41,775 nucleotides of DNA from a virus, in UHGV virus genome UHGV-0209075; one strand, written 5' to 3'. The translations under genes and the position numbers were made by a program. Below, piece after piece: positions 3,236 through 40,479 of this stretch. How positions within the stretch are numbered: the stretch's first letter is position 1; each line of letters opens with the position of its first letter. The notes beneath the pieces are model-generated. The model did not search any database, was not told where the DNA came from, and worked only from the letters and a program-made list of their open reading frames with translations.

Positions 3236-3631
3236 ATGGATTTTGCAACTATCACAAGTAGCGTTGTGTTGAGTGCATGTGTTGCTGGCGTGGTTTCGCT
3301 GGTTAATGGTGCCTGGCAACGCAAATCGGAACGAACCATTGAAGCGCAACGCCGGGCTGCTGAAGCCAGGGCTAAAATAAGAGAAATGGCTCTCACCCTC
3401 GCATTGAAAGAATGGGAACTTCACCAAACCATATCGAAGACAAAGGGATATGGTGTCAGCGGCCCGGAAGTTTACGTCTTTCGATACTTTCGTATGCTCA
3501 ACCTGATGGAAGAAGACAAATTCACGATTGAAAATCTCAGACTGATCCAGCACGACTCCATGTGCGCCGTCGCAGCGATTCAGGCAGAGATCGAGCGATA
3601 CCGGGAGAAAAACGGCCTCCCGATGCCATAA
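3236..3631 (+). CDS. membrane-anchored protein of unknown function (cargo gene antisense to the replication operon)
   Basis: ATG 3236 preceded by AGAGGAGG (6-nt spacer) and a TATAAT hexamer at 3191-3196; residues ~5-24 hydrophobic helix, then Arg/Glu-rich helix and ~70-aa C-terminal domain. Confidence 0.6.
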   Translation: MDFATITSSVVLSACVAGVVSLVNGAWQRKSERTIEAQRRAAEARAKIREMALTLALKEWELHQTISKTKGYGVSGPEVYVFRYFRMLNLMEEDKFTIENLRLIQHDSMCAVAAIQAEIERYREKNGLPMP

Positions 3632-3867: not shown

Positions 3868-4293
3868 TTAGTGCATCACCACGGCATTTCCCGCCGGACC
3901 ACCACGATTCATCTGATTGAAACCAGCGATCGCCACTGCAACAAAATCATCAGCGTCTCTCACCAGTCGTTCCCGCGTCTCCACCAGTTCCCGAAACCAG
4001 GCTGAACTGTGGCTGCGCATTCGGGCCACCAGCAGAGGCGGCATTGCTTTTTCGATCGCTGGTAACAACGCCTGAATTTTTTTAACCGCATCAGGGGTGT
4101 CTTTCTCCACCCAGCGGAAAATTTTCTGAGTATTGCGAGCCAGGGCTTCCGGATGGCTGTCGTCATACAGTTCCGGGAACGTCATTCCCAGCTCGAAATA
4201 CGCTTTGGTAATTTTCGCAGCCGGTACTTTTTCGCCGTCCGGATGCGCCCAGGCATTCATCGCCATGCGGATGTGTTCATGCTTGATTTTCAT
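3868..4293 (-). CDS. CII-position regulator, resembles YdaT-family proteins of Rac-like prophages
   Basis: 141-aa ORF translationally coupled to cro-like gene (start/stop overlap at 4290-4293); N-terminus MKIKHEHI; synteny. Confidence 0.5.
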   Translation of the reverse strand: MKIKHEHIRMAMNAWAHPDGEKVPAAKITKAYFELGMTFPELYDDSHPEALARNTQKIFRWVEKDTPDAVKKIQALLPAIEKAMPPLLVARMRSHSSAWFRELVETRERLVRDADDFVAVAIAGFNQMNRGGPAGNAVVMH

Positions 4294-4505
4294 GAATCAT
4301 TCTTTCCTTCGTTCGAGGTGCTATCCTGCTTCTTGTAAAGTTCTGGGTTGTATTTCAATTCACCGTTAGTAATTTCATCCAGTTCCATTGCGCGAAGTTT
4401 GGGAATAACTGCTTGCCACCGCACAACAGCCACATGTGAAATTCCAAGAGCCTCAGCTACTAGTCGCTTTTTTTTGAAATAGCGCAGAACATCATCTTTG
4501 AACAT
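4290..4505 (-). CDS. Cro-like HTH regulator (YdaS/Cro type)
   Basis: 71-aa ORF divergent from repressor; HTH segment KKRLVAEALGISHVAVVRWQ; AGGAGA SD 5 nt upstream of ATG 4505. Confidence 0.7.
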   Translation of the reverse strand: MFKDDVLRYFKKKRLVAEALGISHVAVVRWQAVIPKLRAMELDEITNGELKYNPELYKKQDSTSNEGKNDS

Positions 4506-4534: not shown

Positions 4535-4596
4535 GTAACAATAGTTACATAGCAATGTCAACCATAGCAACATCACTTGGTAGTAACATTGGTTAC
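4535..4596. promoter_or_regulatory. OR-like operator region: two 14-bp dyads GTAAC-N4-GTTAC (4535-4548, 4583-4596) in the repressor/cro intergenic region
   Basis: GTAACAATAGTTAC and GTAACATTGGTTAC, centre-to-centre 48 bp; the second abuts the repressor ATG at 4597. Confidence 0.5.
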
Positions 4597-5271
4597 ATGA
4601 AAAACACTATCAGCGAACGTATTCGGAATCGTCGAAAAGACGTTGGATTAACCCAACAGCAGGTTGCGAAAGCAATCGGCATATCTCGTGTATCCGTAAC
4701 AAAATGGGAAAATGGCTCTTCAAAACCTGACGGTGAGAATTTGCATCTACTGTCAAAATTGCTTTCCAAATCTCCTGAATGGATTCTTTATGGAAAGGAC
4801 GGTCACGATAAAACCGATGATCTGCGTCTGAATCAGTATCTTTACATTAGTGACAACATCGCCCGGTTGCCCGTTTTAACGTGGGAACAGGCTGGTTATT
4901 GGGATATGAGTTGTCCAGTAACCGAGATTCCTGGCATTAAGAATTGGGTTGATGTCATGACAAAAACCGCTGAAAACTCTTTTTTATTGCATGTTGAGGG
5001 AGATGCGATGACAAACTCTAACGGCCTCCCAACCATCCCCGATGGATCTACCGTGCTGATCACACCATGCTCAAGTAACATTAGAGAACTGGTGGGAAAA
5101 ATAATCTTAATCCAATTGGAAGGAACGCCAAACGTAACACTAAAAAAAGTTGCGATTGACGGACCAAACATCTATCTGTTGTCACTGAATCCGCTTTACA
5201 AACCCATCGAACTGAATGGTGGTTACACCATTAAAGGTAAAGTTTCACAAATACATCAATACTTAGACTGA
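4597..5271 (+). CDS. cI: CI-type repressor (HTH_XRE N-domain + LexA/S24-like C-domain) with Ala at the nucleophile position (GDAM instead of GDSM)
   Basis: HTH LTQQQVAKAIGISRVSVTKWENG; C-domain motifs HVEGDAMTNSNG and VTLKKV align by eye with lambda CI EVEGNSM / FTFKKL; start taken at ATG 4597 (ORF-track ORF begins at TTG 4498). Confidence 0.8.
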   Translation: MKNTISERIRNRRKDVGLTQQQVAKAIGISRVSVTKWENGSSKPDGENLHLLSKLLSKSPEWILYGKDGHDKTDDLRLNQYLYISDNIARLPVLTWEQAGYWDMSCPVTEIPGIKNWVDVMTKTAENSFLLHVEGDAMTNSNGLPTIPDGSTVLITPCSSNIRELVGKIILIQLEGTPNVTLKKVAIDGPNIYLLSLNPLYKPIELNGGYTIKGKVSQIHQYLD

Positions 5272-5277
5272 GTCAGA

Positions 5278-5300
5278 ACCCGCATTCATTGCGGGTTTTT
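5278..5300 (+). terminator. rho-independent terminator after repressor gene
   Basis: ACCCGCA-ttcat-TGCGGGT stem followed by TTTTT, 7 nt after the repressor stop. Confidence 0.65.
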
Positions 5301-5333: not shown

Positions 5334-5362
5334 TTGACTCGAAAGGTAACTCTTGTTACCTT
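5334..5362 (+). promoter_or_regulatory. candidate PL-like promoter with a third operator dyad in the spacer
   Basis: TTGACT (5334-5339), 17-bp spacer containing GTAACTCTTGTTAC (5346-5359), then TACCTT; same dyad as the two OR-like operators. Confidence 0.35.
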
Positions 5363-5682
5363 AACGGCATACCAACCCACCCCGCCCCACAGAATGCAGG
5401 GCAATACTTCGAGTTACCAGGCAGTGGTCAGGGGTTAAGTAGCCAGCCCGAGGCGTAAGAACATGACGGCAGGGTTCAACTTTAATAACTATGCAGCAGG
5501 TTTTTGTTCCGCTACCCCGGCGTTAAGGGGAAACAGAGGATTTCTCAGTGGGCGAAGTCAAACATCAGAATGGAAGGCATCCCGGGATCGGCAAAGAAGC
5601 AGCAATGGCGCTTTATATTGACATCAGCGCCATTGCCGGACAGGTAAGAATTATCAGAGCGGTAACTAAGCGGTATGCGCCT

Positions 5683-5883
5683 TTACTTCAGAAAGTCTCT
5701 GGTGAGTGCACCGAAGATATTGTCAACGATTTCGTCATCGAACTGCGAGGACTCATCTTCAGTTACAAGGTGACCACAATTTTTGCAGATGGCTCCCGCG
5801 AAACTGTCAGAGCCCTGCGGCTTAAAGGATGTGTCAAAGACTTCGCCACCACATTCTGGGCAAGAAAACTTGATTGTACTCAT
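5683..5883 (-). CDS. small zinc-ribbon protein (CPECGG...CKNCGH), acidic C-terminus; function unknown
   Basis: 66-aa ORF from ATG 5883 preceded by AGAGGA (8-nt spacer); two CxxCG pairs; a 9-bp-stem hairpin (about 5603-5634) lies downstream; convergent with repressor. Confidence 0.5.
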   Translation of the reverse strand: MSTIKFSCPECGGEVFDTSFKPQGSDSFAGAICKNCGHLVTEDESSQFDDEIVDNIFGALTRDFLK

Positions 5884-5975
5884 AACCAATTTCCTCTCGA
5901 GTAACAGACCCCTCAGAGGATACCACCTCGCCTGACGTGGTTAAAAGCAGGCAACGCTAACCACAAGGAGCCGAC

Positions 5976-6283: not shown

Positions 6284-6578
6284 ACTGACAGTTTACTGAA
6301 AGGATATTTCTCTGAAAAGTCAGAGCATAACGCGAAAGCACACGGAGAAGCTCGTCTCTCTGTACTTTGTCGTTAAATTTAATTCGACCGTGCGCTTCCG
6401 GTTGTGGCAATCCGCGAAATGGCGCGGCGGTAAGTATGGCGGGGTTATTCCTTCCCCTTGAGGACACCGGGTTGTCAGGCTGACCATACGCTTAAGTGAC
6501 AGCCACGCCACAATATCCATGTGTAGTCTTTGGTGGCATCAGTTCTACTCCGTGACTGCTCTGCCGCCCTTTTTAAAG

Positions 6579-10987: not shown

Positions 10988-11032
10988 TGTGATTTTTGTC
11001 ACTGACTTAATGATGTGTAAGTGATTGAATTT

Positions 11033-11093
11033 TGGCGGAGAGAGGGGGATTTGAACCCCCGGTGGAGTTGCCCCCACTCCGGTTTTCGAGACC
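11033..11093 (-). other. attP core: 3' ~61 nt of a tRNA-Ser(CGA)-like gene (anticodon loop to CCA) without the 5' half
   Basis: Minus-strand GGTCTCGAAAACCGGAGTGGGGGCAACTCCACCGGGGGTTCAAATCCCCCTCTCTCCGCCA has anticodon loop, long variable arm, T-arm GGTTCAAATCC and acceptor 3' strand plus CCA; sequence 5' of it is not tRNA-like. Confidence 0.6.
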
Positions 11094-29079: not shown

Positions 29080-30298
29080 CGTTCTTTTCCTCTTTGCCTT
29101 TCGTATCTTTAAAGTTATTCAACGGATTTGCTGCATTTACGCTGACCAGCATTTCATCCAGACCGTCAACCGGGTTCATATCCTCAAATGCCCTGGCTTC
29201 ATTCCGACTCATCCAGCCATCTGTAATGGCAAAGTGATAGAACTGCGCACGCTCCTGTGGGGTCCCACGGAGCAACCCCGTGAGGTTGAAACGAACGTAA
29301 TACCCGGCAGCCCGTTCTGTACGGGTAAACAGGCGACGGTTAAGCTCCTGCTCCCAGTTCGCAACCCAGGGCATCATCGTGTAGCGAACAAACTGAATCG
29401 CCTGCTGCGTAATATTCGAAAATGTGGCTTTTTCCAGGTCATTAATCATGTGCGCCGGGACATTAAAAATCCCGGCAATCATCGACCGGTTCAGCTTGGT
29501 CATATCAATGATCTGAGCATCCACCGGAGAAACTGTCAGAGCGCGGTAATCCAGTTGCGCAGGCAGCAACATGGTTTTATTTTCCTGGCTGCGAAGCGCT
29601 GTCACCGCCCGCTGCCACATATTTTTAAGCCTGCCCCAGCTTTGTTCGTTCAGTTCATTTTTCACAGAAATAATACCGGCAGGACGGGCATTACCGTTAA
29701 AAAAGGCGCTGGTATACTGCTGGCCACTCATTCCCATACCAATGGTTTCAGCATGCTGCATGATCGGGCTCAGTCCCATTTTCTGATTGTTTCCCAGCGC
29801 CCTGATATGGATCATGTCGTCCGGACTTACCGCAAATGCACCCTCTTCGTTATACACCCCGTAAGTATGACGCCCACCGGTGTTAAGTAACGTGGTTTCC
29901 CATGGCATACAGCATTCAAGGCTGGTAACCTCTCCACGACGATTACGTTTTACCCACGTATAACCATTGCCCCACCCCAGCACATGACGCTGCTTCAGTT
30001 CCCGCCACTTATAGCTGGTCTGCCAGGCATTAGGTTCATCATGAACGAGCCAGAACAACGGATGATCGCGTGCCGGCTGAACATGCTCATTCGTTTTTCG
30101 CATCACATGCAGGGGCATCTGAGCCACACTGGATGAAATAACATAAATACAGGCATAGACAGCAGCCAGCTTCATGGATGTTTCCGGACTGACATACACA
30201 TCCCGGGCAAAAATATTATCCGTCTCAGCGGCCTCTCCGGTTACCGGAACCGAGGGATTTTCCAGAGGCTCACTGCGAAACAGAGCATCAAGAAGCAT
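29072..30298 (-). CDS. portal protein
   Basis: 408-aa ORF downstream of TerL; AGGAGAAAAC-ATG RBS. Confidence 0.9.
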   Translation of the reverse strand: MLLDALFRSEPLENPSVPVTGEAAETDNIFARDVYVSPETSMKLAAVYACIYVISSSVAQMPLHVMRKTNEHVQPARDHPLFWLVHDEPNAWQTSYKWRELKQRHVLGWGNGYTWVKRNRRGEVTSLECCMPWETTLLNTGGRHTYGVYNEEGAFAVSPDDMIHIRALGNNQKMGLSPIMQHAETIGMGMSGQQYTSAFFNGNARPAGIISVKNELNEQSWGRLKNMWQRAVTALRSQENKTMLLPAQLDYRALTVSPVDAQIIDMTKLNRSMIAGIFNVPAHMINDLEKATFSNITQQAIQFVRYTMMPWVANWEQELNRRLFTRTERAAGYYVRFNLTGLLRGTPQERAQFYHFAITDGWMSRNEARAFEDMNPVDGLDEMLVSVNAANPLNNFKDTKGKEEKNDE

Positions 30299-36085: not shown

Positions 36086-36090
36086 GCATG

Positions 36091-36121
36091 TAAAAAGGCC
36101 CCAACACATGTGCGTGGGGCC
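36091..36121 (-). terminator. hairpin + U-tract on minus strand between cargo ORF and holin
   Basis: GGCCCC-13 nt-GGGGCC followed on minus strand by UUUUUAC. Confidence 0.45.
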
Positions 36122-36517
36122 TGAGAGTATACATGGTTTCAGTCAACTGCATGGTGCCGGGTGCCTCCCGGTGAATTCAGTACCAGCACCTGAATCCGCG
36201 ATTATCCCATATACCTACTCGCTGATTGCCCCTCCGCACAGGGGGATTCACCATGCCAGTTTCTTTTAACAAACTCCCCGCAAACCAGACAACAGTCAAC
36301 CGCCTGAATTGTGAAGTATTTAAAAATTTCTCCCGCTAACTGATACCCGGCTAACAGTCTGGCGTTTTCTTTTTCAGCAACGGGAAAGCAACAACCACCA
36401 CACCCGCCACCAGCACACCGTCAGCCAGCACTGACATTATCCGGCTGCTGCAATGCCACTCACAAAAACAGTAAGCAATCACTTTTTACCGTAACAAGTG
36501 ATAATCCAGATATGTAT

Positions 36518-37377: not shown

Positions 37378-38199
37378 TTACCTAGTTACCTTTTTTAACT
37401 GCCGCTCAGCCCATGCTTCTTCAATATCAAACCGGGTCACCAGCGCATCATAGAATTTCTTAACTGTTTTTTCCCATGACGCGCGTGTTATCTGGTTTGT
37501 CACCTCGCATATAGCATTAAATGCCTCCGTTGATGGCAGCCTTTCACAGCCACGACCACCACAACGCTGGCAATCTCTGATAACAGGCATACCACGTTTT
37601 ACCGACTCTTCACGATGAATGGCGACACCACGCCCACGGCAATCCTTACAGGCGGTGGAAACCTCACCCTTTCCGCCACACTCCGGACAGGCAACTTTTA
37701 CCACCTCCCTGACTTTTTTCCATTCTTCCCAGTAAGACGGATACACGCCTTTTGTGCACTTTGCCCACACTGGTGGCTTACCATCCGGATACTGGATCTT
37801 GTTTGTAAAAACCTCGCTTTCAATAAATTTTTTTCCGTGACAGCAGGGGCACTGTTTTTTGCTCGCCGCGCTACGGGCATAATCTTCAAACGCATACGAA
37901 GCCATAATGCGCATCACTACCGGTTTTATTTCTGCCGGAAGTTTTCTCAACGCCGCCACACGATCGCACCGACTGAGTGCATAATCTGCCAGTAATTCTG
38001 TTGCCCGCGCCCTGTCATTCATACTGATGCCCATTTTCCCCAGGAACGCAGAAAACCCCATCTCAGCCCGATTCTGTGTCATGCCCTGCGCGGCCATCAC
38101 ATCAGTGATACTCAGCGCATCTTTTGACGTTGAGGCCGATACATCGGTCAGGCCAGGGGATTTTGGGGAGTAGTATTTCGGTAAATCTTCCAGTTTCAT
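37378..38199 (-). CDS. late antiterminator Q (zinc-binding, resembles Quu-type prophage antiterminators)
   Basis: N-terminal YSPKSPGLTDVSA...TDVMAAQGM and multiple CxxC pairs; start overlaps rusA stop; followed by PR'/tR' candidates. Confidence 0.75.
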   Translation of the reverse strand: MKLEDLPKYYSPKSPGLTDVSASTSKDALSITDVMAAQGMTQNRAEMGFSAFLGKMGISMNDRARATELLADYALSRCDRVAALRKLPAEIKPVVMRIMASYAFEDYARSAASKKQCPCCHGKKFIESEVFTNKIQYPDGKPPVWAKCTKGVYPSYWEEWKKVREVVKVACPECGGKGEVSTACKDCRGRGVAIHREESVKRGMPVIRDCQRCGGRGCERLPSTEAFNAICEVTNQITRASWEKTVKKFYDALVTRFDIEEAWAERQLKKVTR

Positions 38200-39630: not shown

Positions 39631-39903
39631 TTACCTCCAGATGCGTTGCTGGAATGTGCGGGACGGACGCGGTGGGCGTTCAGAGTAAGGAAGCCTGACG
39701 GAGATTATCCAGTGACGATAATCGAGGCTGAGGGCTTTCTTAATCTCGTATCCGCGTCTGCGGTAGTTATGAATTAGCCATTCGGCCTGTTCTTCAGTAC
39801 ATGGTGGGTGTTGGTACCAGTCGGTTTTAAATGCGTGTGAACGCCGCTCATGCCGGATGGCAAGGTCGGTATCAGAATTGTGAAATTTGGTTTTGTGCGC
39901 CAT
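39631..39903 (-). CDS. hypothetical nin-region protein (90 aa)
   Basis: ORF with weak SD; stop 2 nt before next gene start. Confidence 0.45.
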   Translation of the reverse strand: MAHKTKFHNSDTDLAIRHERRSHAFKTDWYQHPPCTEEQAEWLIHNYRRRGYEIKKALSLDYRHWIISVRLPYSERPPRPSRTFQQRIWR

Positions 39904-40070: not shown

Positions 40071-40226
40071 TTACTCCTCAGGTTCGTAGACTGTGAAGAC
40101 AGCGACCTCCGTCTGGCCGGTTCGAATTCGTACCTCGCAGAGGTCTTTCCTCGTTACCAGTGCCGTCACTATGACGGTTAAACAGATGACGATCAGGGCG
40201 ATTAACATCGCCTTTTGCTGCTTCAT
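40071..40226 (-). CDS. hok: Hok/Gef-family type I toxin
   Basis: MKQQKAMLIALIVICLTVIVTALVTRKDLCEVRIRTGQTEVAVFTVYEPEE is near-identical to E. coli HokD/RelF as I recall it; AAGGAG SD. Confidence 0.8.
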   Translation of the reverse strand: MKQQKAMLIALIVICLTVIVTALVTRKDLCEVRIRTGQTEVAVFTVYEPEE

Positions 40227-40283
40227 AGCCTGCTTCTCCTTGCCTTTCGGCACGTAAGAGGCTAACCTAGATTTGCCGTTCAT
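40071..40283 (-). CDS. mok: mok-like in-frame N-terminally extended reading frame over hok
   Basis: ATG 40283 opens a 70-codon frame ending at the hok stop, as I recall for chromosomal mok/hok loci. Confidence 0.5.
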   Translation of the reverse strand: MNGKSRLASYVPKGKEKQAMKQQKAMLIALIVICLTVIVTALVTRKDLCEVRIRTGQTEVAVFTVYEPEE

Positions 40284-40347
40284 AGATTGAGCCTCAGATT
40301 AATGTTAAGCGTCTTGCAGGACGCGTAATGTTAACTGGGGCTTTTCT

Positions 40348-40383
40348 CTATCTGCCTTTGGTGTTCATGCCTGAGGCAGATAG
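40348..40383. other. 10-bp perfect-stem hairpin in the hok/mok upstream region
   Basis: CTATCTGCCT-16 nt-AGGCAGATAG. Confidence 0.4.
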
Positions 40384-40479
40384 CCTCAAGCACCCGCAGC
40401 AATTCTACTTAAGTTAGATAAGCTTTTCTATGGTATTCTCTCAGCGTCCCGTAAATACAGTCTCGGCTCATCATTTTTA

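Follow-up and report, generated by a model that had tools for sequence, protein, structure and literature searches.

The 41,775 nucleotides of DNA analysed here (the window) make up one complete, circularly permuted lambdoid genome, which encodes an immunity repressor with alanine at the position of the serine nucleophile of self-cleavage. We consider it likely that this protein is a natural non-cleavable, "ind-" CI repressor and that its prophage is uncoupled from RecA-mediated SOS induction; the loss of cleavage, the non-inducibility and the selective reason for the allele are what we infer from sequence comparisons and genome surveys. In textbook lambdoid induction, a CI protein with an S24 domain is assumed to be the sensor of DNA damage; here a canonical CI is predicted to be dead by one residue.

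The repressor and its active site

The repressor gene extends from 4597 to 5271 on the plus strand, with the TGA stop at 5269-5271, and codes for 224 residues. In agreement with the original prediction, which had classed the product with the CI/LexA-type repressors, the protein joins an N-terminal helix-turn-helix (HTH) of the DicA/P22 C2 kind to a C-terminal LexA-like S24 domain. Pfam recognised HTH_3 at residues 9-63 (E 2e-16) and Peptidase_S24 (PF00717) at residues 92-216 (E 9e-17), so that a full S24 domain is present. The N-terminal domain (4597-4806) is 54% identical to DicA of Qin. DicA itself looks like a relative of this repressor type without the C-terminal domain.

Within this open reading frame, GAT (Asp, 5002-5004) is followed in frame by GCG (Ala, 5005-5007), as had been claimed; the series reads GTT GAG GGA GAT GCG ATG ACA AAC, the DNA around the Ala codon being FLLHVEGDAMTNSNGL and the protein context HVEGDAMTNS. 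The further claim that this alanine (Ala137, plus strand) replaces the nucleophile, Ser149 in lambda CI and Ser119 in LexA, is borne out by a phmmer search, a multiple alignment and a fold match, all of which agree on the register. Among solved structures, the best phmmer match was the full-length lambda repressor 3bdn (E 1e-13), whose alignment sets 'llhvegdamtnsng' over 'wlevegnsmtaptg' and so places the alanine on Ser149. In the same alignment 'tlkkv' lies over 'tfkkl' (Lys192) and 'eqagyw' over 'vqagmf' (Ala111-Gly112). The general base is thus Lys183 (AAA, 5143-5145, plus strand), the first lysine of TLKKV and the counterpart of lambda Lys192 and LexA Lys156, which is the motif (VTLKKV) from which the lysine had been expected to come. 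The scissile-bond motif is kept as Ala99-Gly100 (GCT GGT, 4891-4896, plus strand; EQAGYW), equivalent to lambda Ala111-Gly112, and it is invariant across the Ala- and Ser-bearing members of the clade.

The multiple alignment was made with MAFFT from 78 database homologues together with lambda CI, P22 C2 and LexA. Its nucleophile column holds Ser (G-[DE]-S-M) nearly throughout, the exceptions being the Ala clade, one degenerate protein and two truncated ones. Profile alignment, which had been proposed as a check of the register, places no other serine at the catalytic position, and the serine four residues further on (MTNS) is no relocated nucleophile, because the Ser-bearing sister alleles have it as well. 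An AlphaFold model of the repressor (mean pLDDT 82) had as its best Foldseek matches in the PDB the lambda repressor, the C-terminal fragment of the latter that contains the cleavage site, the lambda repressor-RecA complex and LexA. In summary of its family features, the protein has the S24 beta-fold domain, the Lys general base and the Ala-Gly scissile bond, and lacks the Ser nucleophile in G-[DNE]-S-M; as a lambdoid CI, it has the N-terminal HTH, a divergent cro and repeated palindromic putative operators at OR and OL.

Loss of self-cleavage would be the expected result of such a Ser-to-Ala change. This replacement is the standard engineered route to an uncleavable LexA, and Slilaty and Little reportedly found in 1987 that LexA with S119A or K156A loses autodigestion as well as RecA-mediated cleavage. 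Ser-to-Ala structures of LexA were among the PDB matches of the repressor, namely E. coli S119A (1jhc, 1jhh), M. tuberculosis S160A (6a2s) and P. aeruginosa S125A (8s7g).

We propose the following mechanism. The CI protein of this complete lambdoid temperate phage, with HTH and S24 oligomerisation domain intact, probably binds GTAAC-N4-GTTAC at OR and OL. Alanine stands where a serine would attack the Ala-Gly bond in RecA*-stimulated self-cleavage, and the catalytic lysine and the scissile bond are retained, which would make the repressor a natural equivalent of LexA S119A or lambda CI S149A. Such a protein could act as a repressor and form dimers, and would probably continue to dock on RecA filaments, but it would be unable to cut itself. 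SOS signalling would leave it active, RecA* could not inactivate it, and the prophage would be SOS-blind. The switch to lytic growth might then depend on rare stochastic CI/Cro switching, or it might be triggered in trans, for example through intermolecular cleavage by another S24 protein or by an antirepressor that a co-resident prophage supplies and that targets the DicA-like N-terminal domain.

Operators, prevalence and selection

Exact GTAAC-N4-GTTAC palindromes are found three times in the window (at 4535, 4583 and 5346), all of them inside the immunity region, and 0.58 sites are expected per whole window even with one mismatch allowed. The putative operator GTAACAATAGTTAC (4535-4548) is OR1-like and lies on the cro side; GTAACATTGGTTAC (4583-4596) is OR3-like and abuts the cI ATG, and the spacing between them suggests a degenerate middle operator at about 4558-4571. 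The remaining palindrome, GTAACTCTTGTTAC (5346-5359), is a putative OL operator located downstream of the cI terminator hairpin (about 5277-5300). It overlaps a TTGACT -35-like hexamer (5334-5339) that may be part of a promoter. As far as their arrangement indicates, the three palindromes fit an OR plus OL layout, as two of them border the region between cro and cI and the third comes after the cI terminator.

The start of the repressor bears on this region. The RefSeq form has 238 residues and begins at 4555, that is, 14 codons upstream of the start given here. These 14 additional codons show a dN/dS near 1 and overlap a putative operator, which makes the ATG at 4597 the likelier start; the RefSeq start is probably wrong.

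Divergent from cI is a cro-like gene of the P22_Cro/DicC-like type (4290-4505, minus strand), known from the RefSeq annotation of identical DNA, whose product is 38% identical to DicC. Also on the minus strand, a ydaT-family gene (3868-4293) is assigned from annotation and from Pfam YdaT_toxin in relatives; YdaT acts as a functional CII equivalent in related prophages (PMC9986795). Only cro and ydaT are constant partners of the window-type cI. The cI-cro-ydaT module is mosaic, being joined to differing replication and left-arm modules.

The 1-kb immunity segment is present in 702 of 5426 complete E. coli genomes (about 13%); strains D3, HS4 and NCTC10444 are natural lysogens whose module is identical. 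To count the codon itself we used a 55-mer centred on it, every 28-base seed of which had to span the first codon base: the exact GCG context was present in at least 683 of the 5426 genomes, about one in eight, and the TCG version in none. A Ser-bearing sister allele (WP_028985609.1, about 86-88% identical, RVEGDSMTNS) was found in only 8 complete E. coli genomes, so that in natural E. coli the Ala allele outnumbers the Ser allele by at least 683 genomes to 8. A pattern that leaves the codon open gave a similar picture in IMG/VR, with GCG (Ala) in 87 of 88 cases and TCA (Ser) in the other. The Ala substitution is a fixed, widespread allele, neither a sequencing error nor a one-off event.

A scan of the GTDB species representatives returned unrelated HTH matches only, which confines the clade to E. 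coli and Salmonella strains. When the immunity region was compared by megablast with 50,697 phage records no match was obtained, and the best protein match of the repressor among these records reached 44% identity; therefore no characterised phage carries the window repressor. Its absence from phage records despite a genome prevalence of 13% fits poor inducibility, although as weak evidence, because the rare Ser sister allele is missing there too.

At 90% identity, alanine is found in the cluster of the window type (99% identical to it), in P0002 (89%, E. coli, GCG) and in P0005 (70%, Salmonella Enteritidis, GCA), and serine in P0003 (88%, TCA), in P0006 (66%, TCG) and in nearly all remoter relatives. 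The neighbour-joining tree of these clusters is ((((window, P0002), P0003), P0005), P0006), and whichever Ser outgroup is used to root it, Ser and Ala must have been exchanged at least twice; the presence of alanine in both the 89%-identical E. coli lineage and the 70%-identical Salmonella lineage thus implies two or more switches. Between the window type and P0002, both Ala-bearing and from E. coli, the C-terminal domain has a dS of 0.69 and a dN/dS of 0.053, a constraint equal to that between Ala and Ser lineages. These values indicate purifying selection on a repressor gene that is maintained and functional. Strict conservation of Ala-Gly and the lysine in long-standing Ala lineages would be unexpected if cleavage were wholly irrelevant, and it may reflect a structural constraint or an occasional reversion to serine.

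As for the selective reason, the Ala allele may persist because a prophage that cannot be induced burdens its host less and still confers immunity. In the mouse gut, 1-2% of wild-type lambda lysogens were induced per generation, and a cI ind- prophage showed 1000-fold less induction, which removed the fitness cost of lysogeny (PMC4752277).

Routes to induction

A LexA box is absent from the whole 41,775-base genome according to scans with CTGT-N8-ACAG, with the 20-mer consensus (up to three mismatches) and with a relaxed pattern, whose sole match, at 29317 inside a structural gene, is a chance one. This agrees with the earlier inspection by eye, in which no such box had been seen. In two relatives with the same Ala-cI, a LexA-like box AACTGGATATTTTTACAGTA is present (L076, 3028-3047; L081, 2626-2645). 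We rejected it as a link to cI since it lies across the start of a phage gene for a DNA methyltransferase and has no linkage to the repressor.

Antirepressors were sought among 20 small ORFs, most of them from the early, nin and left-arm regions. None matched an antirepressor family in PHROGs, nor did the 10 of them that were also compared with Pfam; their matches are to PHROGs of unknown function only, except for one to an excisionase family. It should be noted that small antirepressors are diverse and could escape both PHROGs and Pfam. A tblastn search of the window with Rem and Sakai Ant gave nothing. The ORF at 39631-39903 sits where rem is found in Qin, but it was discarded as a Rem candidate given that it has no similarity to Rem.

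The zinc-ribbon ORF (5683-5889, minus strand), of the ECs_2282 family (NCBIfam, 1e-15), is present at only about 11 of the 88 related loci that carry the window-type cI. In Sp12 of O157 Sakai the same gene lies beside an unrelated CI-type repressor gene of 372 nt, which is too short for an S24 domain. The ORF belongs to the ydfC-dicB left arm and is not a consistent partner of the repressor. A plus-strand ORF (5548-5904; phrog_21318, E 4e-66) is antisense to it and overlaps it, both being supported by their families, and would be the first gene of a putative PL transcript.

Since the window is a whole phage genome, the missing SOS link holds for the entire phage, and with neither a LexA box nor a recognisable antirepressor the prophage appears to be uncoupled from SOS as a whole. 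The phage also stands apart from the antirepressor-controlled class, because no antirepressor gene under a LexA box is present and the repressor does not lack the S24 domain.

The repressor might be non-cleavable and still answer to an unrecognised antirepressor of the phage itself, which would bind CI and could be the zinc-ribbon protein or a small protein of the nin or ea region, as the original prediction proposed. Many small ORFs of the window fall only in PHROGs of unknown function, the cI N-terminal domain is DicA-like, as we mentioned before, and such control of non-cleavable lambdoid repressors is well established for Gifsy (PMC3121763) and for Rem and DicA (PMC10448788). However, in a genome without a LexA box the candidate gene would not be under SOS control, no match to an annotated antirepressor family, Rem or Sakai Ant was obtained, and cro and ydaT are the sole constant neighbours of cI. 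The zinc-ribbon gene, with its low frequency at cI loci and its association with a short unrelated repressor in Sakai Sp12, does not behave as the candidate effector that it had been taken for, and the small nin-region genes named with it match no antirepressor family. We regard this explanation as rather doubtful. Somewhat better, but still improbable in our judgement, is induction in trans by resident prophages, either by antirepressors (Rem-like, P22 Ant-like or Gifsy-type) that would bind the DicA-like domain or through another S24 protein with a functional Ser-Lys dyad that would cleave the Ala-Gly bond intermolecularly. The strong constraint under which Ala-Gly and the lysine are retained would be in line with it, although that conservation can be explained structurally. 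Kim and Little are said to have observed in 1993 that a wild-type C-terminal domain cleaves a LexA active-site mutant intermolecularly; this cleavage in trans is nevertheless slow in vitro. E. coli is usually polylysogenic, and strain M15 carries tandem related prophages. In addition, cross-acting antirepressors are documented (PMC3121763), and Rem derepresses DicA 165-fold (PMC10448788), which may be relevant to a repressor with a DicA-like N-terminal domain.

Two further explanations would remove the peculiarity of the allele altogether. Self-cleavage might persist by means of another nucleophile, such as a nearby Thr or Ser or an activated water, leaving the phage normally SOS-inducible. 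Apart from the nucleophile the active site is intact, as is the cleavage site, and some relatives have Thr at the nucleophile position, but Thr139 and Ser141 are equally present in the Ser sister alleles, so they are not compensatory, and Ser-to-Ala is the accepted cleavage-dead mutation in the LexA proteins of three species. We consider this very improbable. Slighter still is the chance that the substitution has no functional meaning, either having arisen by neutral decay in a prophage remnant that is dead and inherited vertically or being a sequencing artefact. Some carriers do seem defective, as the integrase of the M15 prophage is frameshifted and in strain D3 the module lies in a Rac-like element at ttcA. 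However, the same codon context in 683 genomes, a C-terminal dN/dS of 0.05 across a dS of 0.69, the occurrence of the module on several differing backbones and the intactness of all essential genes of the window phage speak against it, and the explanation thus already conflicts with the observed selection and distribution.

To return to the natural ind- repressor, its module is carried by many prophage backbones and the window phage seems functional; phages of this type therefore still move, and a route of induction probably exists. A more speculative extension, which we put forward tentatively and think unlikely as a whole, is that the Ser/Ala codon is a one-nucleotide evolutionary toggle of SOS-inducibility within one immunity group. 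The Ala form would be a dominant, recombining anti-induction cassette that has swept the lambdoid prophages of E. coli (about 99% of the immunity type), and induction would bypass SOS, by cleavage in trans or by an antirepressor that the prophage community supplies and that targets the DicA-like domain. Ala-Gly and the lysine would be kept because induction is now non-SOS. If this were true, the induction of a phage would depend on which other prophages are present.

Known systems and the surrounding phage genome

The window repressor shares with lambda CI, P22 C2 and LexA the HTH plus S24 fold, the Ala-Gly site and the general-base lysine, and it has the divergent cI-cro arrangement, the palindromic putative operators and the lambdoid context. 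It differs from them in the alanine at the position of the nucleophile, with which the chemistry of self-cleavage should be absent. The behaviour expected of it is that of the lambda cI ind- laboratory mutants, namely a stable repressor that is dominant over cleavable homoimmune ones and a prophage that DNA damage does not induce; unlike those mutants, the window allele is natural, evolutionarily persistent and, among the complete E. coli genomes, fixed in about 13%. The classical lambda ind1 mutation is E117K and does not change the active site.

The repressors GfoR/GtgR of Gifsy, DicA and RacR are lambdoid and are not cleaved, and the window system resembles that of DicA in the N-terminal domain of the repressor (54%) and in the DicC-like cro. 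In contrast, they have no S24 domain, which the window repressor keeps in full. The Gifsy repressors depend on an antirepressor controlled by a LexA box (PMC3121763). The Gifsy, 186 and N15 systems all have a LexA-controlled antirepressor, whereas in the window phage both a LexA box and a known antirepressor are missing. PaaR2 of CP-933P and Sakai Sp12 has been reported to lack a peptidase motif and to be unresponsive to mitomycin C (PMC8630535). It is, like the window protein, a CI-like repressor in an immunity region of the cro/ydaS-ydaT type, but it lacks S24 and is fused to a toxin-antitoxin operon, whereas the window protein would be a pseudo-protease inactivated at a single residue. For this reason CP-933P/Sakai Sp12 was rejected as a published equivalent, PaaR2 being a different protein with no S24 domain. 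HK022 is a poorly inducible phage; its CI was considered as a precedent and set aside, as it has GDSM. A literature search for the RefSeq protein WP_001394126 returned nothing on the biochemistry or induction of the repressor, and within the journals covered, which are fewer than all, we found no paper on the window allele or on a natural serine-less lambdoid CI.

A wider survey of 1.8 billion cluster representatives yielded 103 full-length HTH-S24 relatives at 50%-identity clusters. The nucleophile column contains Ser in 86 of them, Thr in six, Ala in five, another residue in four and a gap in two, which leaves 15 with a residue other than Ser, and most of these non-Ser relatives also lack Ala-Gly. 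Judging from these alignments, pseudo-protease repressors may be a general overlooked class. Non-Ser clusters include P0085, P0107, P0116 and P0151; P0085 has Thr together with an intact Ala-Gly and lysine, and may be a variant with a Thr nucleophile.

If the window repressor is truly non-cleavable, a sizeable share of the apparently intact prophages of E. coli would be missed by mitomycin and UV screens, and the annotation "LexA family/SOS-response repressor" would be misleading. Furthermore, the locus would offer a natural test of host selection for non-inducible prophages.

The last 150 and first 150 bases of the window are contiguous in E. coli M15 (98.7% identity over 298 nt). On the minus strand the genes follow the order cro, ydaT, replication and nin, and on the plus strand cI, ydfC, DicF, dicB, exonuclease, xis and int. 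After int come attP with a partial tRNA and then the tail, head, terminase, lysis, tRNA and Q genes; none of the large structural genes is disrupted, and int, Q and the genes for lysis are likewise intact. Just past int, at about 11030-11090, lies the 3' part of a tRNA gene (GGCGGAGAGAGGGGGATTTGAACCCCC...) that ARAGORN does not call, and genomes that match only from 11025 onward mark the attP junction. Since relatives are integrated next to yccA, the serT tRNA gene is the probable target of attP.

The left arm is Qin-like (ydfC-DicF-dicB-ydfD), and Rfam places the DicF sRNA at 6518-6569 (plus strand), between ydfC and dicB. Rfam also recognises a sok antitoxin RNA at 40221-40395 (minus strand), adjoining a hok-type toxin ORF (40071-40283, minus strand), and STnc100 at 36086-36285 (minus strand), upstream of the lysis genes. 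The gene at the Q position (37378-38199, minus strand) codes for 273 residues with DnaJ-like CxxCxGxG zinc-finger repeats, and its product differs from the Q of the near-identical M15 prophage. An ORF of 131 residues (3236-3631, plus strand; phrog_36733, E 5e-90), annotated as hypothetical in strain M15, is located inside the rightward early operon in antisense orientation, with ydaT on one side and the replication genes on the other. Strain M15 (NZ_CP185789.1, 1291000-1340900) contains two tandem related prophages in which the nin-Q segment is duplicated, and its frameshifted int lies at the internal prophage junction.
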